Counted from the stretch's first letter, positions 1,915-55,715 are shown. The stretch is DNA of 64,000 nt from an uncultured virus (IMG/VR IMGVR_UViG_3300028591_000016) (IMGVR_UViG_3300028591_000016), one strand, 5' to 3'. The notes: generated from the letters alone by a model not told the origin. Numbers and translations: made by a program.

Positions 1915-2307
1915 ATGGCAAACGAATGGTACAAGGATAATGATAGGATGAGATACTTCATCAAGGCACTTGAGAACAAACTGAATACGATCTTCAGTTA
2001 TTCAGTCACGGTCGATGACTGGGAGTGGTATATCCCTAAGATCCACAAGACAGATGAGCAGTACCTGGAGATCAAAGGGAATGTATCCGGCGAGTCCAGC
2101 TACTCATGCAACTACAGGGACGCGGACGACTTCGACATAGTGGAATTCGATTTCGATACGCCGGTGTTCGCAGGCCACTTCCCTGAGTCGATGCTCAAGG
2201 AGAACACCAAGCAGCAGTTCTTCGAGATGATGGTAAAAGACTTCATCGATGAAATAGAGAATGCAGTGGAAGACTACGCAGCGAACGCAAGAGAGAACAA
2301 CGATTGA
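1915..2307 (+). CDS. hypothetical protein
   Basis: 130-aa ORF in array. Confidence 0.75.
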   Translation: MANEWYKDNDRMRYFIKALENKLNTIFSYSVTVDDWEWYIPKIHKTDEQYLEIKGNVSGESSYSCNYRDADDFDIVEFDFDTPVFAGHFPESMLKENTKQQFFEMMVKDFIDEIENAVEDYAANARENND

Positions 2308-2319
2308 AACAAGGAGAGT

Positions 2320-2823
2320 ATGAAAATGGAAATGGACATGGAGTTCAGACTGAAGATGGCAGAGGAATACATCCATCAACAGTATGTGAATGAATGCAAG
2401 GAGAGCGGATGGAATATCAAAAGGAAAGCGAACCTGTATAAGGATCTTCCTCCGAGCATGCACGAACCTATCCTGGACAGAATGGCAGACGAGGTAGTGG
2501 TCGATTACCTCCAGGCATTGATCGGCAGGATCTATGAGAACAGACTCTGGTCATCAAAGGATTACGACAATGCACCTCCGTACATCAAAGAGAAACAACC
2601 AAAGTGGTTACTCATCCTGATCGAGAAGGTAGTCAACGGAACATTCGAGAACTGCCTGGATCTTCTGGGCACGGACTTCAAGTACTTTAAGGATGCAGAG
2701 TACCTCAGATATACTGATGATGGGTCACAGAAGAACTGGGAAAGGATGATGGAGCTCATGCATAAACACTGTCAAAAGCTCTGCGGACTGGGAGCTGATG
2801 ATCATGAAGAAGGCAAGGACTGA
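2320..2823 (+). CDS. hypothetical protein
   Basis: 167-aa ORF, AGGAG RBS. Confidence 0.75.
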   Translation: MKMEMDMEFRLKMAEEYIHQQYVNECKESGWNIKRKANLYKDLPPSMHEPILDRMADEVVVDYLQALIGRIYENRLWSSKDYDNAPPYIKEKQPKWLLILIEKVVNGTFENCLDLLGTDFKYFKDAEYLRYTDDGSQKNWERMMELMHKHCQKLCGLGADDHEEGKD

Positions 2824-14473: not shown

Positions 14474-14508
14474 TTATAAATAGTATCTATACCATATATA
14501 GATACTAT
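14474..14508 (+). promoter_or_regulatory. TATA box plus 12-bp perfect inverted repeat (operator)
   Basis: TTATAAAT then ATAGTATCTATA-CCATA-TATAGATACTAT. Confidence 0.6.
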
Positions 14509-14523
14509 CTAAATGGTGTTACC

Positions 14524-14907
14524 ATGTATTACATGCCGGTAGATATGTGCAAGCTGATTGCGAACATCGTTGCATATCCATGGGATTGTCTTACCAAATA
14601 TGATCCCCGTATAATGTGCAATGACCTTCGTAAGATGCTTGATGATACTGGCCCTAATCTGTTCTTCGATGTGATATCACATCCGGTGATCGTTAAGGAA
14701 GGTCTTGTGTTCAGGACTTTCCTTACGGTCATGTCAAAGGATCCCGAGCTGGTTCTCGGTGTGGTATCGCGTGCTGTTCTGAGGGATATGGTCTTCACAT
14801 TGTATTTCACGGATGCATATGGCGACCAGTATTCTCTCAACAGCGTTTCATTCAGAACCGTGGGAACAGAGGGATTGAGTATAGATACCATGAACTTGGT
14901 GATATGA
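14524..14907 (+). CDS. hypothetical protein
   Basis: 127-aa ORF after promoter. Confidence 0.7.
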   Translation: MYYMPVDMCKLIANIVAYPWDCLTKYDPRIMCNDLRKMLDDTGPNLFFDVISHPVIVKEGLVFRTFLTVMSKDPELVLGVVSRAVLRDMVFTLYFTDAYGDQYSLNSVSFRTVGTEGLSIDTMNLVI

Positions 14908-28628: not shown

Positions 28629-30427
28629 GCCGCCATCTCCCTCATGGAGTCCTCGACCTCATCCTTGGATGCGTCCACGTCTGGGTCATCCCTTCTGGCA
28701 GTTCCTTTCTCGGGCGGACCTTCTGACCCGTCCCCGGGCATCCTTCCCATCGCCTCGGCCTGCTGCTGCATCATCATCTGCTGCATCTGCATCCTGCGGT
28801 CGACCTGCTGGACGGGCTCTCTGGAGTAGTAGAACTCTCCGTCCACATACTCCGCTTCATAACCGCCCTGGATCATCTTCAGCATCTCATCGATCTTGTC
28901 CATCCTCTTCTTGGCATCGGCCATCGCCTTGGTAGGCCTGTCAAGACGGAGATCCCAGTCAGTGATCTTCCCGGCCCACCATGACACGATCCAGTCACAT
29001 GCCCTGTCGATACAGGACATGGGGTGCATCAGATAACGGTCATAGACCGTGATCTGCTGACTCTCGTTGTTCATACCGCCCGAGGCCTCGACATCGCCTG
29101 CGAACAGGTTGGGTACTCCGATGTGCGCACAGAGCCTGTTACGGATATCGTCCTTGGATGCGAGCATATCCGATGTAGCATCGGACATCAGGTCGAGTAC
29201 CTGGGCGCGCATCTCTGCAACCCCTTGCAGTTGCGGAGGTGTGCATACAATCGGGATAGAATTGTCATTGGTCGCAAGGGTGTCCGTGATACCTCTTGCC
29301 ACCTCAATGGCGTCCTCATCATTGAATCCGGGAAGGATGACGATCTTACGGACATATCCGAACTTCCTCTTCTTCAGTTCCGACTTCTCGATGAAGTGCC
29401 AAGCCTGCAGGTCATCCTCTATGTCATACCATATCGGCATACCGTAGGTGAGTGCGGGTCTGAACCAATGGTCCTGATAGATCTCATGCTGCATGTAATA
29501 CCAGGACTGCCCGCTTGCACCGAGATTGTCTCCGACCTTATACGCTGCAGGGTATATCTCGATACCCTTCTCGGTCAGCTGGTTGATCTTGTCGATGTCG
29601 TCTGAAATGCTATACGGCGTATGCCTGTCTGCCAGAATGAATCCGTATTCACGACCGGGCGTACCCGAATCATCAAAGAGCTGCTGGACCTTGATGGGAT
29701 CCAGGGAGATGAACTCGACAGGGAACACCTCTTCCTCCTTCTTCCCCTCACCCAGGTCGATGGTGTGTATCTTTCCTGTCAACGGGTCGAAGATATCCCT
29801 CGCGATACAGAGCAGATACCCCTGATTGCAGAGATATTGCATCTCTGCATATGACCTTATGACCTCTTTCAGTGTCTGTCCGCTGTCATTCGCTTCATCA
29901 AGGAAGGATTTGCCATTCGGTCTCTTAAAATACTCCAGCTGGCTCTTATCCGGACGCCTTAACTCGGTCGACCCGCACTCTGGACATACACTTGTCATTG
30001 TACGCGTCTCATACCCGCATTTCGTGCATTTCTTAGCAAATTTCGGCTCGAATTTGAGGTCATAACGCAAAAGCTCAGTGACTGAACGGGAGATAAGTGT
30101 AGAAAGTATCGATACTTCCTGACGATACTGGTACATTCTTGCATACATGAACCACCAGTTATTCGTCTTGGTCACGCGGAAGTTTATATCGGTCGGTCTC
30201 TCCGTATTTCCTACCGCAAATCTGGAGGCGTGCGTCTGCGCATCCGCAGGGGGAATTTCCTCGGGATATGAATCGTAATATGTCCGCATAAGCGGGTCTA
30301 AACCTTTAGGAGTGGCTGAAAATACCTTTGCGGTTGTCTGAATCGGCCTCCCGATGAGGGGTGGAAGCGTTACTGATGGCATGTGATCACCGTTTATATA
30401 GTCCTGACTTTTTTTATATTTACTCAT
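28625..30427 (-). CDS. portal protein with Zn-ribbon insertion
   Basis: Follows TerL; YGMP, IRNRLCAHIGVPNLFAGDVEASGGMNNESQQITV; CTKC...CPEC insertion. Confidence 0.85.
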   Translation of the reverse strand: MSKYKKSQDYINGDHMPSVTLPPLIGRPIQTTAKVFSATPKGLDPLMRTYYDSYPEEIPPADAQTHASRFAVGNTERPTDINFRVTKTNNWWFMYARMYQYRQEVSILSTLISRSVTELLRYDLKFEPKFAKKCTKCGYETRTMTSVCPECGSTELRRPDKSQLEYFKRPNGKSFLDEANDSGQTLKEVIRSYAEMQYLCNQGYLLCIARDIFDPLTGKIHTIDLGEGKKEEEVFPVEFISLDPIKVQQLFDDSGTPGREYGFILADRHTPYSISDDIDKINQLTEKGIEIYPAAYKVGDNLGASGQSWYYMQHEIYQDHWFRPALTYGMPIWYDIEDDLQAWHFIEKSELKKRKFGYVRKIVILPGFNDEDAIEVARGITDTLATNDNSIPIVCTPPQLQGVAEMRAQVLDLMSDATSDMLASKDDIRNRLCAHIGVPNLFAGDVEASGGMNNESQQITVYDRYLMHPMSCIDRACDWIVSWWAGKITDWDLRLDRPTKAMADAKKRMDKIDEMLKMIQGGYEAEYVDGEFYYSREPVQQVDRRMQMQQMMMQQQAEAMGRMPGDGSEGPPEKGTARRDDPDVDASKDEVEDSMREMAA

Positions 30428-31838
30428 GGGTCGCAAATACCCTGCGACACCTGTACTCTGATGATACGCTTGTATCGATTGCTGCTACAAGCCTTCCTTT
30501 AGGTATCTCATCCATACCTTTAGCGACCGCGACACGGCCTTTGCCCGCCCTGAGGAACCGGTCCGTACCATAATGCAACGCATCCATCAGGTGGTCGTGC
30601 TCCTTCTCGGGCTTCCCTGTGAACTGTCCATCCTTATCGATTTCCCAGGAATATGAGGAGAATTCCATTATGTGATACTGGCACTTTGGATGAACGTGGA
30701 TATTGTAGGTCTGGATCCTCTGAATCGCATTCACAACCGAGTCCTTTCCCTTTAGGGCCGCCTCGAGATTGGGCAGCGCATACCTCTTGTAATTGCCGCC
30801 CTCATTCACGATCAATCCGTTCCTCAACTCGTAGATGGACTTGGGCTCTGCACAATCCGCAACGATACGGTCGAAGGCATACCCCATCTCCGTGATCTTC
30901 TTTGCTATATCTGCGTTGGTCATGCCCTTCTGATACATCTCATCTATGATCCACATCTCATGGTTCTTCACATCCACATATGCAACGGATAACGCATTAT
31001 ATGAGACGGAATACCCGAAATCCAGTCCCACTGCCTTCGCAATCCCCGGGCGATGAGCAATCTCTTCTGGATTGAAACTCTCTACCGTCCAATTCTCATA
31101 GATTTGACCCTGCGATGACCCCCATTCTCCATGTACGATGACCTCTGCCGCCTTGGGGTTGTATATCTCCAGATTGCGGTAATATTTTTTATCGTCATCC
31201 GTAAAAGCAGGGTTATCCAGATATGTCGTCGTAAACGCCAGCGTATCCTCCCTTTCCTGATCGAAGAACTGCTCCTTCAGCCAATGGAACTTATGCCAGG
31301 GGTTGAAAGAGAAGAAGAACTTCTTCTTCAGCCCGGTTTCAGGGGGAATTGCACGGATGGATGCCTGTACTTTGGTGATTGCGCCGAAATCGGTGATCTC
31401 AAAGGCCTCCTCGAACCACACCCAACAGAAATAACAGTTGGGAGGCGCACGCAAGGACGCCAATTTCAACGGATCATCCAATCCTCTGAATATAATAGTC
31501 TGCCCGGTCGGTTTATATGTGAACTGCATGGGCTGCATGGTGCAGTTCCACTTATCCAGCACCTCCAGGTCATATAACGCGTTCTTGATGTCCTGATAAC
31601 ATGACCCAGATATGGTATCGAAGATCTTCCTTATGACCACCGCAGAGGAGTGGGGTTGTTGCATGATATGCACAACAAGCCATAATGCCACAAAATAGGA
31701 TTTCCCGCTACCCTTCGATCCTTTGATGACAACATTCTCTTTATTCGTGTACCAAGGAAGAAGATATGCGTGTGATAGGGCAACCTTTGGGTCAAATATC
31801 TTCTTTCCGTCCTTGGTCACCACGAATTTAATTGCCAT
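30420..31838 (-). CDS. terL: terminase large subunit (PBSX-like)
   Basis: Walker A KGSKGSGKS, Walker B WVWFEEA, FNP, RNase H GLDFGY, ADCAEPKSI, HDHLMDALHY. Confidence 0.95.
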   Translation of the reverse strand: MAIKFVVTKDGKKIFDPKVALSHAYLLPWYTNKENVVIKGSKGSGKSYFVALWLVVHIMQQPHSSAVVIRKIFDTISGSCYQDIKNALYDLEVLDKWNCTMQPMQFTYKPTGQTIIFRGLDDPLKLASLRAPPNCYFCWVWFEEAFEITDFGAITKVQASIRAIPPETGLKKKFFFSFNPWHKFHWLKEQFFDQEREDTLAFTTTYLDNPAFTDDDKKYYRNLEIYNPKAAEVIVHGEWGSSQGQIYENWTVESFNPEEIAHRPGIAKAVGLDFGYSVSYNALSVAYVDVKNHEMWIIDEMYQKGMTNADIAKKITEMGYAFDRIVADCAEPKSIYELRNGLIVNEGGNYKRYALPNLEAALKGKDSVVNAIQRIQTYNIHVHPKCQYHIMEFSSYSWEIDKDGQFTGKPEKEHDHLMDALHYGTDRFLRAGKGRVAVAKGMDEIPKGRLVAAIDTSVSSEYRCRRVFATHE

Positions 31839-32274
31839 CTGTATCCTCACTCGGAAGAACCTCAAATTCCACATCGACTACGGAATCCTCTTCCTTGGCA
31901 TCATCTATCGCAATCGCGACCTCTGATGCGAGAGCCTGTTTTATGTCCTCGGGGAGGTCATCCATATTCGAATAGAACGTGGGAAGGTCCACCGTGATCT
32001 TCTGTTCTCTGACCGGCTCCATTCCGCCCATTTTGACCAACCATTCTGCGGACTTTACGTCTCCCCCGAGTGCCTGGTTTGCCATCCTGACTGCAATACC
32101 CGTCTGCACATCCAGATTCTTATCTCTGAGGGACATCATTGACATACGCCCATCAAGCTTAACAGGCACACCCTCGCCTATGGGGGAATTCATGACGATC
32201 GTGACTATCTCCTTCAGCGTATTCTCTCTTCTGACTTCCGGATCCTTTGAACTTGCAGCATCTGGCACATACAT
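31828..32274 (-). CDS. putative terminase small subunit
   Basis: Directly upstream of terL; NQALGGDVKSAEWLVKMGG helix motif. Confidence 0.65.
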   Translation of the reverse strand: MYVPDAASSKDPEVRRENTLKEIVTIVMNSPIGEGVPVKLDGRMSMMSLRDKNLDVQTGIAVRMANQALGGDVKSAEWLVKMGGMEPVREQKITVDLPTFYSNMDDLPEDIKQALASEVAIAIDDAKEEDSVVDVEFEVLPSEDTDGN

Positions 32275-32793: not shown

Positions 32794-35700
32794 TTAGGCT
32801 TGCCTATCCTCTATTTTCTTATCGATATCCCACTCACTCTCATCGAAATCAGCAGATCTGTAGAAATAACCTACACGCTCCCTTAATGTACGCTTTGGAC
32901 CCATTACCTCTGCATCCTTACGTTTTTGCCGCCTGACATGCTGCGACAAGAGGGTCTTTGGTAGACCTGTTGCCTCATCTATCACGGGCTCTCCTGTTTT
33001 ATCATCCAATAACGGTACACGAATGACGGGCCAACCGTATTTATTCGGTACAACAGGTAATGTAGACGTGTCTATATCATGCGTTATTGGTGACCCTGTG
33101 GTTTCATCCAGGGTCGGTTTTCCTGTGGTTTCGTCCAAAATCGGGATGCGTATCTGATGGTTGGGCACCCCTACCCCTCCGCTCGCCTCATACATCTCGG
33201 CAAGCTTGGCTGCATACTCCTCTATGTCTTCCATAGAAGATTGTTCATCAATTCTCATCCCAGGAATTATGGGCAATCCCTTTGCTCTTCCATTATTGAT
33301 TATCAATTTTACTGCATCCGCTATCTGTTTTTTGTTTAACCATGAGAGATCATAATCTCCGGAGGTTTCCTTCATGTTAAGCGTGGGCATGCTCATCAGA
33401 ACATCAGGCGTAGACTCCATCCTCACCTCTCCAGCATCATCACGAATGGGATTGCCCTCCTCATCTACCATGGGCTTGAAGGTAGTCATCGAGTCTGATA
33501 ATCCTTGCTTCCTTGCAATCATATCTGCAAGCTTGGTTGCGACAGCATCTATCTCCTCCTGCGTGGAGCTGGGGTTTAATCCAAATAGTACATCCTCACG
33601 AGTATCTCCTGCTCTAGGAGTGATTGCCTGCTCCTCTATAGGCTTACCCTCATTCCTCTTTGCATTCTTTTCACTAAGCTTTCTCCGCTTCGTATATCTC
33701 ATTGTTCTTCTGCTGTTATCCGCCTTAAATTCAGGGCTGGATATGATTCTTGATAGGATGTGTGCAATCTGATCCTTATCCAATCTAGTTATATCATACT
33801 TATCTATCCCTTTCCCTCCTTCATTGGTAGGTAATGGGATAAGCCCACTGCCATCCGGGAAGAACGCATCTGCAATAGCAGTTGCCTCAGCCGCTTTTGC
33901 ACCCTCCTCCGATACTTTTTTACGACGGAGATATGCATCCGTGCTGGTATTGATTCTCCAATCATTGAGTAGGTCTGCAAGCTTATCAATGGTCAACCCT
34001 TCATCAAATAATGCAAGTTTATCCGCTCTTCTCTTATCCTTGAGCGGCTTATCGACTGCTTTCTGAGAAAATCCTTCTTTTTCACCGGCAAGAGGCACAT
34101 GCAGAGGAGGTATTTTCACATCGAAATTTGTATCAAGACTGTCAATATCCACTGGGCCCCAGCCTTTCATCTTTTTCTTATTGTGTAGGCGAACCATCTC
34201 CATTGCTCTGCCCATGGCTGAAAATTCTCTCCACTTACGGGAGTCTGTACCGAACTCATTACGAAGCTTCTCATAGAATTCCGGAAGCTTACCCTGCTTC
34301 TGCGCATCTATCGACTCGTAATACAGGCCAATATAGTTCTTAAGGAGGTCTCCTGCATTTGCAATCATGTCTCCTTGGTCTTCCCCATTGTTTGCCCACT
34401 CTTTCGGTAAGGCCTTCCAATCATACGCATAATGGGCTCTGTCCTCTGCCGCCTTCTCGTCTCTCTCCCACTGCGCCTCTTCCTGTGCCACTCTATCCGA
34501 AAGAGATAACCTGTCTTTCTCCGGTATAGGCATACCTAGGACATTTCTTGCGAAATTGAGCTCCTTATCATCAACAGGCCTATAATAAGGGAACTGAGAA
34601 TAGATGATATCCTCTGCATTGGATCCAAGAGTGCCCAACAGATCATCTGTCGCATCATCGGTATAGAGGTCCTCATCCATCAGGTTATATGGCTCGAGTG
34701 CTAGCCTATCCTCACCTGAATTGTATCTTAGCCACTTGCTTCCTATCTCCCTGTTTAATTCAGGCCATTTCCGAAGATACCTATCCACCAACAGCTTAGT
34801 ATCATCATCCATGTCCGCATTTGCCCCGTTTTCAGCACCCCTCATCAGCTTATCCTTTGCAAGGGCCAATATCAGGTTCTTACGAACATTCTCGGGATCG
34901 AAATCTGCAAGGAGGTTGTTATATCTCTCTTTTTCAACGAGATAATGGTCATTCTCCTCCCTGTTCTCATTATCCGTATCCATCTTTTTATCAATCACAT
35001 CACTCTTTTCGGTAACATTGTCCTCATCTACCTCTGAATTATTCTGATCAAGAGATACTGCAGAGTCCCCATATGTCAATTTGGGCTCATATTTCTTATT
35101 ATCCCCCTTTAAATCATCAATCTCATCCTCTAAATCCTTAATCTGACGCGAATAGTCCATAAAGTCTTCTTGATCCACGTCCCTACGATTACGTAGATAT
35201 TTCAATTCGCTTATCTTTCTCTTCTTTTCAGCGATAGCCGCCTCATTTGCAAGAATCTTCTCTGTATACTGTATGTTGTTTGCATAGGTCTGGGGACGTG
35301 TCATCGAGCTCTCGTCCCCATCCAAAAATCTGAAGATATCATACTTATTTGTCTTTAGATCATCAACTGTCTTGTCTTCAAAGTTCTTTAACCCGATTTC
35401 ACGGTATGAGTCGTCTCCCAGGTACCTCTCAACAAAATCCTTCATCTGCTGGGCCCTGCTTTTCTGCATCTCTCTTGGCTTCCCAAGCAGTATTGGATTC
35501 GAACCGTCAGAGGCCAGGGTTTGCGCAAAGCTCCTCGCAAGAGCCTCCATTTTATCAATGTTGACCCCTGTTGAGTCGAGATCCCCATCCCTCATTGCTG
35601 TGATTATATCATCAAATTTTGCCAAAAGCGCTGCATTGGCCATGTTTTTCTTTATGCTATCCTCGGTTGCATCCATCTTTTTTGAACCGCGATACCTTTG

Positions 35701-37899
35701 GAAAACGTCGAGCAAATACTCCGGAGGGTATTCTGATAGGAGATGGCCCTCTCTGAGGAAGCCCATCGTCCTCAATAAGTCAGCATCCGCATCGGTTATT
35801 GTCTCGGTGTCCTTCAAACGTTTCAGCATGTCCTGGACATCATCGTTCATCCAGCTCCACTGGCCTTTTTTCCTGTCTATCGCATTGATGTCTTCCGTAT
35901 CCCACTCCGAAAAATTCTCTTTATTATACTTCTTCCCCCAGATATCCTTAATCACCTCTTCTCCATTCTCATCAACATCCTTTATGTGATACCTTGCATT
36001 ATCTGTGGGGGCGCGATGAATCGCATAGAGCATCATATCCCACAAAGAAGGGGTCCTTCCTGCATACTTCTTGTTAACAGTGTTGTACCCACTTACGATA
36101 TCATCTAACTCTCCAGTCAAACTATTCACAAGGTTCCTCAGATACAGTCCTTTTTGCGACTTGGGGAGATTTTCAACATCCTCTTCTGATGCCAATCCGT
36201 ATTTCCTTGCTAAATCGGCACGCGGCATGAAGTAGTCCACAATCGAATTATCATCGCCTTTATCCAATTGAAGGATCTTCATATACATCTTTGCGGCTTC
36301 ACTTGAGCCTAATATCTGGGATAGGATTACCTCTGGGGACAGGGAAAGTCCTGTCTTCTTCAAAAATGCGTTGTCCTTATCATCAATGGCAAGCGCACCC
36401 GCACCCATACTTTGCTCAATAGCGTCTGCAATACGACTGAGCCTGTTTCCATATGCCGAAAGAATAGGCGAATTTCCCTGCTCTCCCTTCGCGGTATAAT
36501 ATGCTGCTTTATCCCTTATCGCGTTCAGATATGCATTGTTCTGTATCGACAGGATCTTCTCGGCCTCTTCTGGGGGCAATCCTCCTACCCCAGACGCGCC
36601 CTGGGCACCGCCAATAGGGGTGACCAGCCTTCTTATCTTATTGTAATTGGATGCTGCACGTCCCAGGTCTTTTACAGACACAGGGGCAGTTCCCTCGGAC
36701 CCCATCAGATCTGAGGTGACGAGTCTTTTTATCGATGTACCCAGACTCAAGTCCCCCATCGAACCTGTGAGTGCAGCCGTAAGAACGGCCTCAAGGTCCG
36801 TCGGGTTGGTAATGGTCTCCATCGCCGAGGTTACCGGTGCATATTTGAACAGGGTCTCTATCGCCCGTTGCTCCTTACGGTTTTTCTCGGCCTCCCCTTT
36901 TGCAAATGCCTTCTTCCCTGCTTTTGTGTGCAATTTCAATTTTTTTAAGAATCTTTCCGCAGAGATGTTGCCCTTCATTGCTTCATTCTGCATCTGCATG
37001 ATCAATAATGCACGGGTCAATGGCACACGGAATTGCTTTGCCCTCTCTGCAGGATCATAACCATGCGCCTTCATTGCAGCATTGAACCAATTTGTAAAGA
37101 TCTGCCTTCCATCCGCATTGTATGTATATTTCGGTGCCTCCCCCTCTTTGGTCGTCTCATATGGCACCCTGTATTGGATATTTCCTTCTGGGTCTTTCAC
37201 TTCTGTGGCCAACTGCAACGCAGCTGGGTATTCGGGGAGAAGGCTCCAATCCGCACCCTTCACCTCTGCATTATCCGCCAAGCCCATTGCGGCAAGCAAT
37301 GCAAGTGAAAAGGACCTCTGATACCCCTCCGAATAATTGGCTCCGTCCTCATACTTTTGAAGATTCTTCACTACATTTGGGATATAAGGAAGGGGTACAC
37401 CATATGACCTGGAATTCACACCGGGACCGCGGGGATCATAACTCGATCCGATCCCCGTATTGCTCGGACCCCATCCCGCATCAAAGTCAGTCCTTCTCAC
37501 TTCCGGAACAATCGCAGAATCCCTCTCGTTGAGCAGGTCATCCATCCCTACCTGATCCATATACCTGTTCAATGTGGAATAGTTAGACCTTCCGCCCAGG
37601 CCCAGATTGATGCCTTCCCCCGAATCGGGATCATAGCCTTCCCCGACCAGCTCCGGGAAAGTGTCCTCCTCACCTTCCTCCGGATCTGCATCATAATCTA
37701 CAAAAGACAGTCTTCCTACAGGCTCTCCCTTCGCAGCCTTCTCATCACGAGCCTTCCATTCCGCCATATGGCTCTTGATTTCCTCTTGTTTCCTATCCAG
37801 CTCCTGGATTTCGGCTGCCTTCTTTGCATTATGCATGGTCAGGTCGTCGGCACCTTTCGCCTTCTTCTTTCTGATAAAAGGCTCATATTGTATAGTCAT
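32794..37899 (-). CDS. giant putative internal virion or ejection protein (1701 aa)
   Basis: True start MTIQYEPF ~25 nt after TTTTTATA box; the track's longer start overlaps another gene; no recognisable domain. Confidence 0.75.
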   Translation of the reverse strand: MTIQYEPFIRKKKAKGADDLTMHNAKKAAEIQELDRKQEEIKSHMAEWKARDEKAAKGEPVGRLSFVDYDADPEEGEEDTFPELVGEGYDPDSGEGINLGLGGRSNYSTLNRYMDQVGMDDLLNERDSAIVPEVRRTDFDAGWGPSNTGIGSSYDPRGPGVNSRSYGVPLPYIPNVVKNLQKYEDGANYSEGYQRSFSLALLAAMGLADNAEVKGADWSLLPEYPAALQLATEVKDPEGNIQYRVPYETTKEGEAPKYTYNADGRQIFTNWFNAAMKAHGYDPAERAKQFRVPLTRALLIMQMQNEAMKGNISAERFLKKLKLHTKAGKKAFAKGEAEKNRKEQRAIETLFKYAPVTSAMETITNPTDLEAVLTAALTGSMGDLSLGTSIKRLVTSDLMGSEGTAPVSVKDLGRAASNYNKIRRLVTPIGGAQGASGVGGLPPEEAEKILSIQNNAYLNAIRDKAAYYTAKGEQGNSPILSAYGNRLSRIADAIEQSMGAGALAIDDKDNAFLKKTGLSLSPEVILSQILGSSEAAKMYMKILQLDKGDDNSIVDYFMPRADLARKYGLASEEDVENLPKSQKGLYLRNLVNSLTGELDDIVSGYNTVNKKYAGRTPSLWDMMLYAIHRAPTDNARYHIKDVDENGEEVIKDIWGKKYNKENFSEWDTEDINAIDRKKGQWSWMNDDVQDMLKRLKDTETITDADADLLRTMGFLREGHLLSEYPPEYLLDVFQRYRGSKKMDATEDSIKKNMANAALLAKFDDIITAMRDGDLDSTGVNIDKMEALARSFAQTLASDGSNPILLGKPREMQKSRAQQMKDFVERYLGDDSYREIGLKNFEDKTVDDLKTNKYDIFRFLDGDESSMTRPQTYANNIQYTEKILANEAAIAEKKRKISELKYLRNRRDVDQEDFMDYSRQIKDLEDEIDDLKGDNKKYEPKLTYGDSAVSLDQNNSEVDEDNVTEKSDVIDKKMDTDNENREENDHYLVEKERYNNLLADFDPENVRKNLILALAKDKLMRGAENGANADMDDDTKLLVDRYLRKWPELNREIGSKWLRYNSGEDRLALEPYNLMDEDLYTDDATDDLLGTLGSNAEDIIYSQFPYYRPVDDKELNFARNVLGMPIPEKDRLSLSDRVAQEEAQWERDEKAAEDRAHYAYDWKALPKEWANNGEDQGDMIANAGDLLKNYIGLYYESIDAQKQGKLPEFYEKLRNEFGTDSRKWREFSAMGRAMEMVRLHNKKKMKGWGPVDIDSLDTNFDVKIPPLHVPLAGEKEGFSQKAVDKPLKDKRRADKLALFDEGLTIDKLADLLNDWRINTSTDAYLRRKKVSEEGAKAAEATAIADAFFPDGSGLIPLPTNEGGKGIDKYDITRLDKDQIAHILSRIISSPEFKADNSRRTMRYTKRRKLSEKNAKRNEGKPIEEQAITPRAGDTREDVLFGLNPSSTQEEIDAVATKLADMIARKQGLSDSMTTFKPMVDEEGNPIRDDAGEVRMESTPDVLMSMPTLNMKETSGDYDLSWLNKKQIADAVKLIINNGRAKGLPIIPGMRIDEQSSMEDIEEYAAKLAEMYEASGGVGVPNHQIRIPILDETTGKPTLDETTGSPITHDIDTSTLPVVPNKYGWPVIRVPLLDDKTGEPVIDEATGLPKTLLSQHVRRQKRKDAEVMGPKRTLRERVGYFYRSADFDESEWDIDKKIEDRQA

Positions 37900-37937
37900 G
37901 CGTGACTTATCTACATAAAAATATAAAAAGAAAGAGC

Positions 37938-37949
37938 GGGCCGAAGCCC
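37938..37949 (-). terminator. UUCG hairpin with U-tract
   Basis: Minus strand GGGC-TTCG-GCCC then GCTCTTTCTTTTT. Confidence 0.6.
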
Positions 37950-37957
37950 TAAAGGGT

Positions 37958-38191
37958 TTAGAGGATCGCCTGAAGCTGGTTGATCTTGTTCTCGATGACA
38001 CAGCGGACATCGCCGAACTCGACAGGGACCTTGACACCGGCCTCGATGTAGGCATCGGCGACCTCGTCCACGTCGCGGGGCTCGATAGAACCGTCGTCCA
38101 TGAACTGAACGTACTGGTCCTTCCACAGTCCGAAGGGCTGGGTGTCGTCAGCATCGATCTGAATGGTCACAGACCTGGGCTGCATATTCAA
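37958..38191 (-). CDS. hypothetical protein (75-77 aa)
   Basis: GGAGG RBS; coupled to the membrane protein gene. Confidence 0.7.
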   Translation of the reverse strand: MNMQPRSVTIQIDADDTQPFGLWKDQYVQFMDDGSIEPRDVDEVADAYIEAGVKVPVEFGDVRCVIENKINQLQAIL

Positions 38192-38817
38192 GCCTCCTTC
38201 GGGGGCTCTTCCGCCTTCTTGGCTGCCGCAATCTCCTTCACGGCTGCGGCATACTCTTCCGGGGTCATTCCCAGCTCCTCTGCGGCCTTCATGATGCCAT
38301 CGATGGCATTCTCGGCCTCCCTGACCTTCTGCTCGACGAACTTGCCGAGAGCAGTGATTCCCTCAGAGAAAAGGATGGTGAAGACCATACCGAGCCCAAG
38401 TGCTGCAAGTGCGCCGAAGACGCAGTAGTCGTAGACGGTGGGCTCGACGACCTTGAAGTATCCTACCAGGAGGGAGGATGCGAAATATGCCAGGATGCCG
38501 GTGAGCACCATAGCAAGGGCGACTCCGCCGATGAACTTGAGCTTCATCGGGTTGAGCTTCCTGTTCAGCTGCTCAGCGTCATTGTGCTCAACGTACCTCC
38601 AGAGGAAGACGAAGAAGCACACGATCACTGCGGCGACCGCACAGGTTACGATGTCGGAAACGACGAATTCTGTGGGTACTGTAGATACCATGATAAATAC
38701 CTCTCCTGACATCACGCAAGGCACCAGCACAGGCACGAGGATATACCTGCAGCTCCAGAGAACCGCGAGGGTATATCCCCATCTCCTGATTGTGCTAGCA
38801 TTCTCACGCTTTGCCAT
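38188..38817 (-). CDS. 3-TM holin-like membrane protein; two possible starts (38817 and 38691)
   Basis: Three hydrophobic helices, charged C-terminus; internal GGAGAGG RBS before Met43. Confidence 0.6.
   Translation of the reverse strand: MAKRENASTIRRWGYTLAVLWSCRYILVPVLVPCVMSGEVFIMVSTVPTEFVVSDIVTCAVAAVIVCFFVFLWRYVEHNDAEQLNRKLNPMKLKFIGGVALAMVLTGILAYFASSLLVGYFKVVEPTVYDYCVFGALAALGLGMVFTILFSEGITALGKFVEQKVREAENAIDGIMKAAEELGMTPEEYAAAVKEIAAAKKAEEPPKEA
38707..38816 (-). ncRNA. 110-nt rod-like structured RNA leader
   Basis: Nested helices with many G-U pairs on the minus strand (see findings). Confidence 0.6.
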
Positions 38818-38852
38818 ACTCCTTCTAACAGAGTGTGGTTATTTAAATCAAA

Positions 38853-39227
38853 TCAAAGGAATCCACCGGACCACTTTGTACTCGTGGATTTCCATCCTGC
38901 AGCAGTATTGCCGTTTGCTTCATTGTAGATGTAAATATTGCCGGTGGATCCATCAATGTAGAACCATCCTTGTTTAGGGGTGATCGGAACGGGCATATTT
39001 ACAAAAACCTTCACGTTCGAGGGGCCCTCAGGCTGGGTGGGGTCGAACGCAGGGTTGGATATATTACATTTAGCGACTGGATCCGAAAAATACACAGCGT
39101 TCTCATTGAACCCATTCGGAAGATTTTCCATATCCAGTGTTGCCGGTGCTGTTCCGTTCCCCATCCAAAGCTTAGCGTAATATTTCTCTGCGATTAGCGT
39201 AACCACTGTTGCGTCTGCCATATTCAT
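38853..39227 (-). CDS. putative minor structural protein
   Basis: LWMGNGTAP...PKQGWFYIDGSTGNIYIY...W fibre/collar-like motif; own TATA box. Confidence 0.6.
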   Translation of the reverse strand: MNMADATVVTLIAEKYYAKLWMGNGTAPATLDMENLPNGFNENAVYFSDPVAKCNISNPAFDPTQPEGPSNVKVFVNMPVPITPKQGWFYIDGSTGNIYIYNEANGNTAAGWKSTSTKWSGGFL

Positions 39228-39258
39228 GCAATTAAAATATGGATTTATAAAGAATGGG

Positions 39259-39354
39259 TCAAAGATCGAAATAACCGCCTAGCGCAAGAACGATTGCGCC
39301 TATGATACCCACTAGGATTTCCATGACCATTACCGGCTCCATCGTATCACTCAT
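39259..39354 (-). CDS. 31-aa single-TM peptide, not in ORF track
   Basis: MSDTMEPVMVMEILVGIIGAIVLALGGYFDL; ATTAATAT box upstream. Confidence 0.5.
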   Translation of the reverse strand: MSDTMEPVMVMEILVGIIGAIVLALGGYFDL

Positions 39355-39436
39355 CTATCGATTTTCTTATGAGATATTAATGCTTTGGCCGAAACTCTGC
39401 CCTTAACTTATATACTCACACCTCTTTTCTCACAAT

Positions 39437-39976
39437 ATGTTTGACATTAACGCAAGGATGGAACAGTGGTCTGCCGCCAATCGCGTACATTCCACTGAAG
39501 AACTGACAAAATCACTCCAACAGCCCTCCGAGCCGACCGCAACGGAGCCTATGACAAGGAGTGCAAGCATCCAAGCTCGCGCCGCACCGTTCCGTAAGTC
39601 GAAAGGGCCTGTTTTTGACATCAACAGCCGTATGGATGCGTGGAACAAGTCCGAGAAGGCCGGCGACACCGCGACCTACCAGAATCTGTCCTCCAGCGAC
39701 CCCTTCAAGAAGGGTCTGGAGGAGCCTTCGGACGCTGTGCAGATGCTTAGCTCCATGCCGCCCGAGCTTGTGATGGATATGGTGGAGATGTGCCTGGAAA
39801 AACTCGGTTCTGCATCCGAAGAGCCTGGACCACAGGATGATTCCCCTGAATCTGAGCCTAGCCCTAAGGATGATGAACCTAAGGACAAGGATGAGTCCAA
39901 GTCTGATGAGAAATCCGAGTCTGATGAGTCGGATAAGCCAGACACAGAGGAAAAGGACGACAAGGATGCTGAGTGA
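39437..39976 (+). CDS. acidic putative internal head protein with FDINxRMxxW repeat
   Basis: FDINARMEQW and FDINSRMDAW; LTKS, MTRS, FRKS, WNKS sites; TTATATA promoter. Confidence 0.7.
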   Translation: MFDINARMEQWSAANRVHSTEELTKSLQQPSEPTATEPMTRSASIQARAAPFRKSKGPVFDINSRMDAWNKSEKAGDTATYQNLSSSDPFKKGLEEPSDAVQMLSSMPPELVMDMVEMCLEKLGSASEEPGPQDDSPESEPSPKDDEPKDKDESKSDEKSESDESDKPDTEEKDDKDAE

Positions 39977-39977
39977 C

Positions 39978-40511
39978 ATGACCTGGACATTCCTTGACAG
40001 ATTGGGCGCATGGAAGGATGCGACCCGTGAGCCGGAGAGGACCAGTTCCTTCCTCAGAAAAGCAGAGGTAGAAAAAGAGGAGAAACTCCCCGATAATCCT
40101 ACCACGGACAATACAGTCAATCCAGCGACCGAGGGCGCTCCGGAAATCCCTGTAGAAAGTATGAAACCGACTCCCACTCCCACAGACCACATGATCGAAA
40201 AGACCGAGGTCGAGAAGGGAGATGGTGAAGTAGACCCTCATGATGGATGCGGATGCCCCGTTTCCGCCGCACTCCATAGCATCAAAGAAGAAGCGGAAGC
40301 CGCTGACCTCTACAACAAGCGGGCAAACAAGGTCGATGACCCACATGCCCGCGAGGTCTATCGCGACATTGCAAAGGAGGAGATGGTCCACCTGGGAGAA
40401 GCTTCTCAACTCCTCGCGGAAGCTGACCCAGAGCTTGCCTCCGAAGTCCCCAAGGGGATGGAGGAGGCGAGCGGCTCCAAAGTTGCATTCAAAAGACCGA
40501 AAAGAGAGTGA
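39978..40511 (+). CDS. ferritin-like protein (encapsulin-cargo/rubrerythrin half-domain) with disordered N-terminus
   Basis: SIKEEAEAADLYNKRA...D...REVYRDIAKEEMVHLGEASQLL...DPE: E-x6-Y and EExxH di-iron motifs. Confidence 0.8.
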   Translation: MTWTFLDRLGAWKDATREPERTSSFLRKAEVEKEEKLPDNPTTDNTVNPATEGAPEIPVESMKPTPTPTDHMIEKTEVEKGDGEVDPHDGCGCPVSAALHSIKEEAEAADLYNKRANKVDDPHAREVYRDIAKEEMVHLGEASQLLAEADPELASEVPKGMEEASGSKVAFKRPKRE

Positions 40512-46835: not shown

Positions 46836-48365
46836 TTATCCTTCAGTAGCGATGTAGATATGCGTGCCGTCCCTGGTACTCCTGCGCTGTCCTATGCCGA
46901 ACTGGGTCTTCAGCGAGGCATGGAACAGCTTCATGGACTTGGGCTGTCTGCCGGTGTCCCTGCAGAACCTACTGTAGGTCAGATAGAGCTCCGCTCTGTC
47001 GATAAGGGCCTGTCTGACCTCCTCCTTGTTCTGTATGTCCAGTTCGAGGTCTGTAGAGAGCCAGTCGAGCATGGTATCCTGCGCGGCCATCTGCTCCGAT
47101 TTCATCTCCTGCGACGCTTCGCAGATCAAGTACTCACCATCTAGATCGGTCTCGGTGAGCTCCTTGCCGTGCATCCTTCTGCGAAGCATGCACATCAATG
47201 ATACCAAAGCCTGCATAGCGAACCATTCCATGGCATCTGGCTCATAGAAGGTGCACTTTATGTTGCGGTCCTCCTTGAAGGTGGCATTGAAGGGTATGGC
47301 GTACATCCTTCTGGCCAATCCGCCGTCCATCCCGCCGAAATTGAGCAGGACATTGGACGCGAAGATGAACTTTCTGGGTCCGTAGCCCATATGGACGCTC
47401 TTATTCTTCGGATTGAAGGTGTACATCTCCCCGGAGGTCGATTTCTTGATGAATTCACGCACATCCGAGGTTGCCATCATCGCACTGCCGGGTCCGGCGG
47501 ACGAATCCGACGAGATATTGACCAATTTGCCCTCGGATTGGGCGATCGAGAAGGAATTTGCCATATCATACATGGAAAGCGTGGAAAAGTTCTCATTTCC
47601 TATCAATTTGCTCAGAATATCGAGCACGACCGACTTTCCATTGGCCCCAGCACCGTAGAGTATGGTGCAGGTGGGCACATTGAACGTCTTCGCGTACATT
47701 ATGTACCCCATTTGCTCGAAAAGCAGCTCGAAGAGCTTCTCGTCTCCGCACATCATCTCCAGATAGCGCTCGCGGATGCCGTTAGAGAGTGCGGAAGGGT
47801 TGAAATTGACGTCAAGGGGGTGTTCGATGAAGACATAAGAGGTTCTGGGAAGCAGTTTATTGTGTAATATGGAATAGACTCCGTTCTTGAATGGGATCAC
47901 TTCCCCTTCAAAATAAGGTTTTGTCAGCTCCCTGCGTGATTCCGTGGTCGCGAGGTTATCGATATCCGGCAGATTGGGGAGGATATTGACTTCCACCATA
48001 CTCGGGAATCTTGTCGACAAGGGGATATTAGGCGCAACATCCAATATCCCTCTGATCAGCTCATTCACCAGTATCTTGAGCGGGAGTTCATAGTAGTAAC
48101 CGGTTTTCATACTGAACCGGTATAGTATGAATTCCCCATCCTTCCTCACCCTGCAAACGCAACCCACATCTTTACAATATCTGCGGAGTCCGAGCCAATT
48201 GATCTCATATTTTCCCTTGGAAAAGGTCACAGGGGAATAGTCTGACAGCTGTGCCTCCTGACGCACATCGGTCAGGGTCGGGATATCGTCTGCAACGTCC
48301 GTACATGCCTTGAGCCGGGCCTCGAATTCAGGGGACCAAGCGGCAAAGTCTTCATCAGGGTTCAT
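46836..48365 (-). CDS. D5/P4-family SF3 helicase (primase-associated type)
   Basis: D5_N IPFKNGVY; Walker A GAGANGKS; EGKLVNISSD; FIFASN; GGLARR..IPF. Confidence 0.9.
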   Translation of the reverse strand: MNPDEDFAAWSPEFEARLKACTDVADDIPTLTDVRQEAQLSDYSPVTFSKGKYEINWLGLRRYCKDVGCVCRVRKDGEFILYRFSMKTGYYYELPLKILVNELIRGILDVAPNIPLSTRFPSMVEVNILPNLPDIDNLATTESRRELTKPYFEGEVIPFKNGVYSILHNKLLPRTSYVFIEHPLDVNFNPSALSNGIRERYLEMMCGDEKLFELLFEQMGYIMYAKTFNVPTCTILYGAGANGKSVVLDILSKLIGNENFSTLSMYDMANSFSIAQSEGKLVNISSDSSAGPGSAMMATSDVREFIKKSTSGEMYTFNPKNKSVHMGYGPRKFIFASNVLLNFGGMDGGLARRMYAIPFNATFKEDRNIKCTFYEPDAMEWFAMQALVSLMCMLRRRMHGKELTETDLDGEYLICEASQEMKSEQMAAQDTMLDWLSTDLELDIQNKEEVRQALIDRAELYLTYSRFCRDTGRQPKSMKLFHASLKTQFGIGQRRSTRDGTHIYIATEG

Positions 48366-48394
48366 GCGAATAGGATGGTCAAGGAGATATAAAT

Positions 48395-48478
48395 AGAAAA
48401 CGGACCGGATGAACCCAACAGGGCCGAAGCCCCCCGGTCCGGACACGTGTTTATCCCGCGACAGGAGTGAACGTATCG
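48395..48478 (-). ncRNA. candidate small structured RNA next to origin
   Basis: TTTTTTATA box at 48500-48508; CGGACCGG/CCGGTCCG stem enclosing a UUCG hairpin; ends in TTTTCT. Confidence 0.45.
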
Positions 48479-48514
48479 ATTGCTCATATGTATACCATCT
48501 ATAAAAAATCTCCC

Positions 48515-48674
48515 TGTGGATTCCATTTTGCAAGTGGATTCCATTTTGCAAGTGGATTGGATTTGATCCACTTCGCCTATTGCAAGTGGATTCTATTTTA
48601 CAAGTGGATTCAATCTGGATTCCTTTATATTTTAATATATAATTATTATAATATATAATCCACTTAATCCACTT
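48515..48674. repeat. iteron-type replication origin candidate
   Basis: GTGGATT at 48516, 48534, 48552, 48586, 48604 (18-bp period); inverted ATCCACTT at 48566, 48658, 48667; A/T-only tract 48624-48659. Confidence 0.75.
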
Positions 48675-48883
48675 AATATCTAAAGATTCTCACAGTAACA
48701 AGCAAAAACACAAAAAAGAGAGAATATATAGGAAGTGTATCAGGATTGTGGATTCGCGCACAGGAGGTTTCGCCCCGCCTAACCCCGATGGGTTTATACA
48801 TCTCCTCGGCATACTCCTATCTGCACGGTTTGATGCCTTCGTATGCATTCCACCTATTCACATCAGACCGGGCAGAGGTCCAT

Positions 48884-49450
48884 ATGAAAGCAGGCAAACT
48901 CACGCTGAAATACGTCCCCATCGACTCCCTCAAGGAGAACCCTGACAACGCAAGGGAGCACGGCTCCGAGATAGAGGAGCTCGTGCAGTCCATCGACAGG
49001 TTCGGATTTGCGGGAGAGATCAAGGTCGATAAGGACATGAACATCATCGCAGGGCATGGCAGACTCATCGCTGCGAAGAGGAACGGCATGAAGGAGGTCC
49101 CGGTCATGGTCCTTCCCTTCAATAAGGAGGAGGCGAAGGCCTTTGCGCTCATAGATAACAAGACCTCCGACGATTCCTCATGGATCATGGACCGCTACAA
49201 CAAACACGTGCAGGAGCTGAGGGACCTCGGATGGGACATGGGGTCCTTCGGGTTCACCTTGCCCGACTTCGGGGACTTCGCCCCGGAGATCCCGGGGGAG
49301 GAACAGCCGGAACCGGAGTTGCCGAGGCAACAGCCCAAGGCCCGCGACAGCTTCAATGTCATCGCCTATTGCAATGATGAGGAGACGAGGGACAAGGTGC
49401 TGGCGTTCCTCATAGAGAACAATATCGCGGGCCAAGTGTTAGGGAGTTGA
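48884..49450 (+). CDS. ParB/Srx-like domain protein
   Basis: IDSLKENPDNAREH...SIDRFGF...IIAGHGRLIAAK...LIDNK. Confidence 0.85.
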   Translation: MKAGKLTLKYVPIDSLKENPDNAREHGSEIEELVQSIDRFGFAGEIKVDKDMNIIAGHGRLIAAKRNGMKEVPVMVLPFNKEEAKAFALIDNKTSDDSSWIMDRYNKHVQELRDLGWDMGSFGFTLPDFGDFAPEIPGEEQPEPELPRQQPKARDSFNVIAYCNDEETRDKVLAFLIENNIAGQVLGS

Positions 49451-55158: not shown

Positions 55159-55431
55159 GTGAAGTTCTACCTCACAACGACCGTCAAGGTTGTGGGGGGC
55201 TCATCCCTCTGCGTCTATGTCCCCCATATGTGGAAGCTGGATGCAGGGGATGAGGTGAACGTGACCGTGCGTAAGGCCGAGGATGAGGGTGAACACGCTG
55301 TCGTATTCACCTACATCGCGACCATACGCGCCGCCAATTCCGGGAATGGACGTAAAATCACCATTCCCAAATTCTTCGGCCTCAATGCCGGAGACTGGGT
55401 CACACTCGCACTTGAGGTCATCCCGATATGA
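55159..55431 (+). CDS. tandem AbrB/SpoVT-like regulator
   Basis: Two repeats: GGSSLCVYVP...LDAGDEV and GNGRKITIP..GLNAGDWV. Confidence 0.7.
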   Translation: MKFYLTTTVKVVGGSSLCVYVPHMWKLDAGDEVNVTVRKAEDEGEHAVVFTYIATIRAANSGNGRKITIPKFFGLNAGDWVTLALEVIPI

Positions 55432-55715
55432 CGCCTGAGGGCAAGATCAAGAAGGAGATCCGCGACTGGCTCTCCGTCAACCTGATTTACTGGACCAACG
55501 TGGCAGGGGGAGCATACGTCAACCCGGGGGCGCCGGACATAATCGCCGACGTCAACGGGCATTTCCTTGCCATCGAGGCCAAGACCAAGACGGGGAGGCA
55601 GTCCGAGTACCAGAAGGCCTGTGAAAGACAGGTGGCGGCATCGGGCGGTACATATATCGTCGCACGTTCCCTTCAGGACGTCGTGGAAGCGGTCGCCCTC
55701 CTCAAAACCCTTTAA
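55428..55715 (+). CDS. VRR-NUC nuclease or Holliday junction resolvase
   Basis: MTPEGKIK, GAPDII, AIEAK..TGRQSEYQ, GGTYIVARS. Confidence 0.9.
   Translation: MTPEGKIKKEIRDWLSVNLIYWTNVAGGAYVNPGAPDIIADVNGHFLAIEAKTKTGRQSEYQKACERQVAASGGTYIVARSLQDVVEAVALLKTL

Follow-up and report, generated by a model that had tools for sequence, protein, structure and literature searches.

In the DNA of an uncultured virus (IMG/VR IMGVR_UViG_3300028591_000016; the stretch analysed, 64,000 nt, is referred to as the window), the segment between two in-frame start codons of a membrane-protein gene is, as judged from sequence comparison, dual-coded: it is a maintained reading frame and, at the same time, a conserved predicted RNA rod. 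The rod appears to be real and conserved at this two-start gene, and a putative regulatory role for it is well motivated. Our preferred reading, to which we assign a probability of roughly 0.45, is that the structure sets the choice between the two starts in a manner analogous, and not homologous, to that of the lambda S gene.

The gene, its two starts and the rod

A terminase large subunit gene lies at 30420-31874 of the window and the virus is head-tailed. Other genes match a primase, a VapE-type helicase, an SNF2 helicase, ParB and a clamp-like protein, and a weak match to a major head protein was also returned. The nearest named relative of the terminase (42.5% identity) is that of vir335 (Caudoviricetes sp.), in whose record (BK063680.1) the host is given as Methanomassiliicoccales. 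The stretch was found in sequencing runs of sheep and bovine gut metagenomes. At the first-in-operon genes of the window an A/T-rich TATA-like box, often preceded by AAACC, ends 20-23 nt 5' of the ATG, and GAGGTGA-type Shine-Dalgarno (SD) sites stand at operon-internal genes. This layout of promoters and SD sites is the archaeal pattern, and many genes look leaderless. An archaeal host had been part of the original prediction made from the stretch alone, and it is borne out by the archaeal-type promoters and by a terminase closest to that of a Methanomassiliicoccales virus; on this sequence evidence the virus is an archaeal head-tailed virus of the ruminant gut and of Methanomassiliicoccales type.

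The rod gene is the second in a minus-strand module that comprises genes for a 124-aa protein, the 209-aa membrane protein, a 75-aa protein, a giant protein, two small proteins, the terminase, the portal and head proteins. The membrane-protein gene (38188..38817, minus strand, as for all features of the gene given below) encodes an extension helix, three core hydrophobic helices and a charged C-terminal tail. A low-confidence AlphaFold model (mean pLDDT 59.5) places helices at residues 8-31, 49-80, 91-120 and 128-181; the ESM Atlas returned unnamed clusters only (<0.85).

The first start codon, AUG1 (38815..38817), opens the 209-aa form. A TATA-like box, TTTAAATA (38840..38847), has its 3' end 23 nt before the A of AUG1; it is unchanged in the related sequences L004 and L005 (see below), and TTTAAAAA stands at the identical 23-nt distance in L011. 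In archaeal leaderless transcripts the TATA box lies about 23-27 nt upstream of the transcription start, which is also the start codon. Since the box ends 23 nt before AUG1, the transcript is predicted to be leaderless or nearly so, with transcription probably starting at or near AUG1. The box-to-AUG1 spacing fits this geometry; a contig of the RNA library X6 reaches upstream to 38876, which may reflect read-through transcripts or DNA, and read-through from the 124-aa gene would put a leader before AUG1.

The box forms part of a 21-nt block, TTTAAATAACCACACTCTGTT (38827..38847), which is the same in the window and in L005, despite a protein identity of only 55%, and shows a single C>T change in L004. 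It occurs once in the window, where 0 copies are expected by chance. A possible small hairpin between CCACACUCU (38819-38838) and GGAGUAUGG (38812-38817) would hide an SD-like GAAGGAG together with AUG1 on read-through transcripts. The L004 version of this hairpin is stronger (9 bp, AUG1 pairing probability 1.0), and the invariance of the 21-nt block may perhaps be due to this hairpin.

Downstream of AUG1, the N-terminal extension comprises 42 codons (38692..38817), with a basic start followed by ~20 hydrophobic residues, and occupies the same bases as the rod. The second start, AUG2 (38689..38691), is in frame and opens the 167-aa, three-helix core form. It is preceded by an SD-like GGAGAGG (38700..38706), and the arrangement GAGGT-7 nt-ATG has the spacing of the operon-internal GAGGTGA sites of the window. 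Around AUG2 lies a near-invariant nucleotide block (38660..38704), with 3 changes in 45 nt between the window and L005. The following geometry had been recognised in the original prediction and was recovered here: a rod ~23 nt after the box with AUG1 (38817) in its base, the SD-like motif at its end, AUG2 at 38691, and a frame that runs through the rod without a stop and adds a basic and hydrophobic N-terminus.

The rod itself is 110 nt long (38707..38816), with its first paired base at 38816 and its last at 38707. Stem 1, UGGCA/UGUCA (38812-38816/38707-38711), includes the U and G of AUG1. It is followed by stem 2, GCGUGAG/CUUGCGU (38803-38809/38714-38720), stem 3, GCUAGCACA/UGUGCUGGU (38791-38800/38722-38731), stem 4, AUGGGGAUAUACC/GGUAUAUCCUCGU (38770-38782/38735-38747), and an apical stem, GCGGUUC/GAGCUGC (38760-38766/38749-38755), closed by the loop UCUG (38756-38759). 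These five stems and the loop, as first proposed, are all present in the minimum-free-energy fold of 38705-38818, which has an energy of −57.0 kcal/mol and a z-score of −5.54, with none of 200 dinucleotide shuffles as good; over the full 157-nt interval proposed originally, z was −4.86. The comparison with shuffled sequence on both strands, which had been suggested as a check, gave only −2.03 for the opposite strand (7/200 shuffles as good), and folding as DNA gave −1.81 and −0.90, neither strand being significant. This asymmetry in the window arises because G-U pairs make up 11 of the total of 44. When both strands were scanned in sliding 120-nt segments, 38701-38820 on the minus strand ranked 4th of 6390 positions, by raw energy and by GC-corrected residual.

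The rod joins no Rfam family. A search of 37500-40000 returned four matches at E up to 10, none of which reached the gathering score of its family, and the only one on the rod was RRE (9.5 bits vs a gathering score of 104). By inspection by eye, neither a K-turn nor a bulge-helix-bulge was found in the internal loops of the rod.

Recurrence of the layout in three remote clades

An exhaustive profile search yielded 19 representatives of the protein family among 1.84 billion proteins. There are 14 close homologues, of which 11 are 200-212 aa long and carry the extension, and three, of 161-169 aa, are called from the inner Met. The two-start layout put forward in the original prediction is conserved: the Met at the junction is kept in 11/11 extension-bearing members (alignment A6), within the motif M-[V/F]-[A/S]-T-[V/I]-P, and an SD-like motif precedes AUG2 in 7/7 DNA sequences. 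In the same alignment P0019 begins at the junction Met, and six short members are without the extension.

The seven distinct DNA sequences compared were the window, L004, L005, vir335, L009, L010 and L011. Clade A consists of the window (to which L002 and L003 are identical), L004 (90% protein identity) and L005 (55%); clade B of vir335_00026 and its relatives L007-L010; and clade C of L011, which is 37% identical to P0020 over the tblastn-matched stretch. Clade B was linked to the window family by hhalign with the broad profile A6 (probability 91.4%, E 8.9e-7, 22% identity). A direct BLASTP comparison of the window protein with vir335_00026 was not significant (E 0.13), and the A1 profile on its own likewise failed to make the link (probability 0.3%), so that only the broader A6 connected the two. 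By these comparisons, the three clades are only remotely homologous. Searches of viral and genome contig collections with the single protein or alignment A1 gave no relatives, and a search of genome contigs with alignment A7 gave no match. Phage records contained no tblastn match to the protein and no blastn match to the locus, and a search of viral contigs with the terminase returned only a 100%-identical fragment that stops short of the rod.

Synteny is preserved, the order running from an upstream protein that is variable except for its conserved C-terminus, through the membrane protein and a small protein, to large proteins. vir335_00026, annotated as a hypothetical protein, is encoded at the corresponding position, with large proteins and the terminase encoded downstream. 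Like the window gene, it has a hydrophobic extension (36 codons), the junction Met and a rod (82 nt, z −4.2). Unlike the window gene, its AUG1 is operon-internal, SD-led and without a TATA box, an upstream stop codon lies 5 nt before it, and its rod is mostly Watson-Crick, with 5 G-U among 38 pairs as opposed to 11/44. In clades A and C AUG1 is signalled by a TATA-like box at a distance of 23 nt, in clade B by an SD.

The upstream co-directional gene (38853..39227, minus strand) varies in length among these relatives, from 124 aa in the window to 174 in L004 (2432-2956), 184 in L011 (741-1295) and 201 in L005 (2359-2964), with a shared C-terminal motif, G-x-Y-Y/I-x...W-x-G-x-F/I-L. In the contig variant X8, 219 different letters stand in place of 38877-39236. 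The gene looks like one for a hypervariable, possibly host-recognition protein. On the other side, the first ~85 codons of the 1786-aa ORF (32794-38154) look out-of-frame and overlap the conserved 75-aa gene (37958-38185), which has homologues in L005 (3611-3838) and L011 (2010-2261); the start of the giant protein is probably near 37899 (MTIQYEPF...). No family matched the giant protein in any library tried.

The sequences of the rod arms differ between and within clades. The structure recurs at the same place in all three, down to ~22% protein identity: the first paired base is ORF nt 2-5 in 7/7 sequences, and 12-27 nt separate the end of the main rod from AUG2. Sense-strand shuffle z-scores were −3.30 for L005, −4.16 for vir335, −3.66 for L009, −2.38 for L010 and −4.36 for L011, and +0.20 for L004. 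In local scans the rod ranked first of 650 positions in L005, first of 448 in L009, second of 2916 in vir335, 7th of 328 in L011 and 25th of 652 in L004. The top local RNA fold of the L011 locus (2161-2340, minus strand, −57.7 kcal/mol) runs antisense to the small gene that follows the membrane-protein gene.

As a control for the coding content, each peptide was synonymously recoded 500 times with the gene's own codon usage. No recoding was as stable as the natural sequence for the window (z −4.9; 0/500), L005 (−3.6; 0/500), vir335 (−4.9; 0/500) or L009 (−4.7; 0/500); one was for L010 (−3.7; 1/500), three for L011 (−2.9; 3/500) and 36 for L004 (−1.5; 36/500). The rod is thus 2.9-4.9 sd more stable than the recodings in 6/7 distinct sequences, all but L004, and codon-order shuffles of those six gave z-scores of −4.1 to −5.8.

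Substitutions within a clade were also compared with the pairing. In X8 and X9, two near-identical natural variants among the run contigs, 5/5 stem substitutions keep the pair (G-C to G-U, U-G to C-G, A-U to G-U twice, and U-G to U-A), while the sixth substitution lies in the loop; the energies range from −54.9 to −59.4 kcal/mol. RNAalifold on the three clade-A sequences gave a positive, that is unfavourable, covariation term with 4 compensated pairs, a result from few sequences and poor because the rods are out of column register. In L004, at 90% protein identity, the rod has decayed to −43.2 kcal/mol, and substitutions break 9 of the 14 pairs that they touch, so that pairing is preserved no better than under random placement (mean 7.1).

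It had further been argued that the many G-U pairs work only on the transcribed strand and so point to selection at the RNA level. This holds for the window, but fails for the family as a whole: antisense z-scores were −4.75 for L009, −3.23 for L010 and −4.15 for L011, about as good as or better than those of the sense strand.

The segment also behaves as coding sequence. Frame 0 of the extension has no stop in 7/7 DNA sequences, whereas the other two frames contain stops in 12/14 cases, and the frame-0 peptide always includes a hydrophobic stretch, its highest 19-residue Kyte-Doolittle value lying at 1.64-1.95 in the six sequences for which it was measured. For the extension, comparison of the window with L004 gives a dN/dS of 0.165, with 6, 2 and 12 differences at the three codon positions, and a dS that, at 0.56 vs 0.27 for the core, is not reduced. 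The extension evolves faster than the core (32% vs 68% identity, window vs L005); in clade B, 18/36 of its codons show non-synonymous changes vs 23/159 in the core. Synonymous changes are fewer around AUG2, as a trend only: 1/11 codons with identical residues vs 35/93 in the rest of the core (one-sided p 0.054), and in clade B 1/13 vs 33/119 (p 0.10).

Proposed choice between the starts and competing explanations

We propose that the structure of the mRNA sets the choice between the two starts. The 126 nt between them both code for the hydrophobic extension and are predicted to fold as the rod, which has AUG1 in its base and ends shortly upstream of the SD of AUG2. With pairing that sets in only 1-4 nt after its A, AUG1 could be used by a ribosome only if a helix of about −50 kcal/mol were melted first; the initiation region of AUG2 lies outside the rod. 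An initiating ribosome needs roughly 15 nt of single-stranded RNA downstream of the start, and hence AUG1 would be handicapped and AUG2 would not. The rod would then make the short, three-helix form predominate over a rare long form of four helices, and its stability would set the long:short ratio. The likely purpose would be to dose or time a membrane-active protein that heads the structural and packaging operon, possibly a holin together with its inhibitor form. Use of both starts and inhibition of AUG1 by the rod are what the arrangement of these signals suggests.

The predicted pairing probability of the SD2 zone was 0.37-0.71, meaning that its accessibility is not clearly high. A switch to an alternative fold, in which the 3' arm sequesters SD2, was considered and rejected, as removal of the 5' arm gave no consistent change in six sequences. 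In X8 a 1-nt deletion at 38713, within the internal loop between stems 1 and 2, leaves the rod in place and puts AUG1 out of frame with AUG2, creating a 56-codon upstream ORF; this internal loop is not conserved. Given this frameshift, the virus may be able to do without the long form, unless the contig itself is faulty. RNA-library contigs of X4 cover 38100-38803, ending inside the rod, and those of X6 cover 38100-38285 and 38525-38876, past the TATA-like box; such contigs may include DNA, prove neither expression nor RNA ends, and give no meaning to the parts they leave uncovered.

The competing explanation we take most seriously, and nevertheless consider unlikely, is that the rod is a general throttle or a 5'-end stabiliser. 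It would lower or delay the translation of a potentially toxic membrane protein, or block exonucleases; only one start would matter and the second Met would be incidental. In clades A and C the transcript is predicted to be leaderless and has the rod at its extreme 5' end, which speaks for such a role, as do the retention of the rod in X8, where the in-frame extension is lost, and the six short family members that have no extension. In the vir335 clade, however, the gene is SD-led, with its upstream stop codon 5 nt before AUG1, and because it is operon-internal there a 5'-end stabiliser does not fit clade B. An incidental second Met is likewise hard to reconcile with the junction Met in 11/11 members and the SD before AUG2 in 7/7 sequences, and with an extension whose frame and hydrophobic character are both maintained.

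It is improbable that the rod is a by-product of coding, without a function of its own. A purine-rich segment for basic and polar residues followed by a pyrimidine-rich segment for hydrophobic ones would be self-complementary by composition, and the polar half is indeed coded by the 5' arm and the hydrophobic half by the 3' arm. The decay of the L004 rod in a gene that persists, and the synonymous divergence between window and L004, undiminished in the extension (dS 0.56 vs 0.27 in the core), are in line with this. Synonymous recoding retains the peptide, yet 6/7 sequences are 2.9-4.9 sd more stable than their recodings; a pure by-product of composition is excluded for these six by this control, and the codon-order shuffles (−4.1 to −5.8) also stand against it.

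We regard as very improbable a DNA-level element, be it a cruciform, a single-stranded hairpin used in replication or packaging, or a palindrome bound by protein. The rod site lies ~7 kb upstream of the terminase genes, and in L009, L010 and L011 both strands fold about equally. As DNA, on the other hand, the fold of the window is not significant (z −1.8 and −0.9) and depends on 11 G-U pairs, the inverted-repeat search of the window did not report the rod, and in each of the three clades the rod goes with the start of a single gene. Least credible of all is an independent small or processed ncRNA, cut from the transcript as a riboregulator, which the original prediction had also entertained: a long stable hairpin with a defined base and, weakly, the X4 contigs that end inside the rod at 38803 would agree with it, but contigs cannot show RNA ends, no Rfam family matched, no second copy or target of the rod was found in the window, and the maintained reading frame encodes a hydrophobic helix.

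Known systems, the holin question and other elements of the window

Lambda S carries a dual-start motif with the sdi stem-loop and yields the S105 holin and the S107 antiholin, the stem-loop being thought to set the use of the starts. The start choice that we propose for the archaeal gene resembles it in several respects: a small membrane protein of several helices, ending in a charged C-terminal tail, is encoded with two in-frame starts; a stem-loop of the mRNA lies at these starts; and the gene heads the late operon, upstream of the packaging genes. The window protein has no sequence or profile similarity to lambda S. In lambda S the starts are 2 codons apart with the hairpin upstream, whereas here 36-42 codons separate them and the coding sequence in between is itself the hairpin; the extension adds a whole hydrophobic helix, the host is archaeal, and AUG1 is probably leaderless in two clades.

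In the MS2 lysis gene, and in early transcripts of T4 gene e, a hairpin masks the sole start, and either coupling or an alternative promoter opens it. The likeness lies in a stable local structure that covers a start codon and limits the translation of a lysis-related gene; the archaeal gene differs in having a further start, which is exposed, directly after the rod, and no alternative promoter was seen inside the rod. Type I toxin mRNAs of the hok and tisB type encode small membrane-active proteins, the translation of which is kept poor by extensive 5' structure. They share with the present case a heavily structured 5' region on a membrane-protein mRNA. No antisense RNA or processing signal was found here, unlike in those systems, and the gene is a conserved member of a structural operon rather than of a toxin-antitoxin locus.

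Profiles of Pfam Phage_holin_*, NCBIfam and the PHROGs lysis category gave no significant match to the membrane protein. A sub-threshold hit to Phage_holin_3_6 (E 0.014) appeared in 1/19 family members, among many chance hits to membrane proteins. No lytic enzyme was recognised next to the gene or elsewhere among the 73 window proteins scanned against Pfam, and the neighbouring 124-aa, 75-aa and giant proteins are all unannotated. A holin, by the definition quoted in a review (PMC10791045), is a small membrane protein with at least one transmembrane helix and a charged, hydrophilic C-terminus. With its three core helices and K/E-rich tail the membrane protein fits this description, which is necessary and not sufficient. 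The gene further shows the marks of a dual-start motif, namely two in-frame starts, each with its own initiation signals, conserved among relatives.

We hypothesise that the protein may act as a holin. That the family is a holin/antiholin pair of tailed archaeal viruses, in which the short form makes the lesion, the long form restrains it and the rod fixes their ratio and with it the lysis clock, is a doubtful extension of this idea. If it were true, an RNA-set lysis timer would have arisen independently of lambda S in viruses of hosts without a murein wall, and the restraining N-terminal helix that tethers the long form would be encoded by the rod's own bases.

In the same 2024 review, the holin genes of archaeal viruses are said to remain elusive and the egress of head-tailed archaeal viruses is described as uncharacterised (PMC10791045). 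The present small family (19 representatives) offers a concrete candidate for an archaeal-virus holin with a built-in regulatory feature. Whatever the function of the protein, the segment would be a clean natural case of overlapping constraints from protein and RNA structure, and would illustrate how a start site is chosen on an archaeal mRNA that is probably leaderless. In the part of the literature that was searched, on dual-start holins and antiholins with stem-loops, on Methanomassiliicoccales viruses and holins and on leaderless alternative starts in archaea, nothing describing this element was found.

Three further elements were seen in the window. Its strongest local fold lies at 55240-55400, with −69.5 and −67.5 kcal/mol (z −4.7 and −4.4), equal on both strands and within the plus-strand ORFs 55228-55431 and 55428-55715. 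An A/T-rich region (~25% G+C) at 48532-48665, between a primase-like gene (46836-48551, minus strand) and a ParB-like gene (48788-49450), contains several direct and inverted AAGTGGATT-like words and looks like a replication origin or partition site. Finally, a 15-nt near-perfect inverted repeat, TAAATAGTATCTATA/TATAGATACTATCTA (14477-14511), is located directly upstream of the gene at 14524-14907 and may be an operator.
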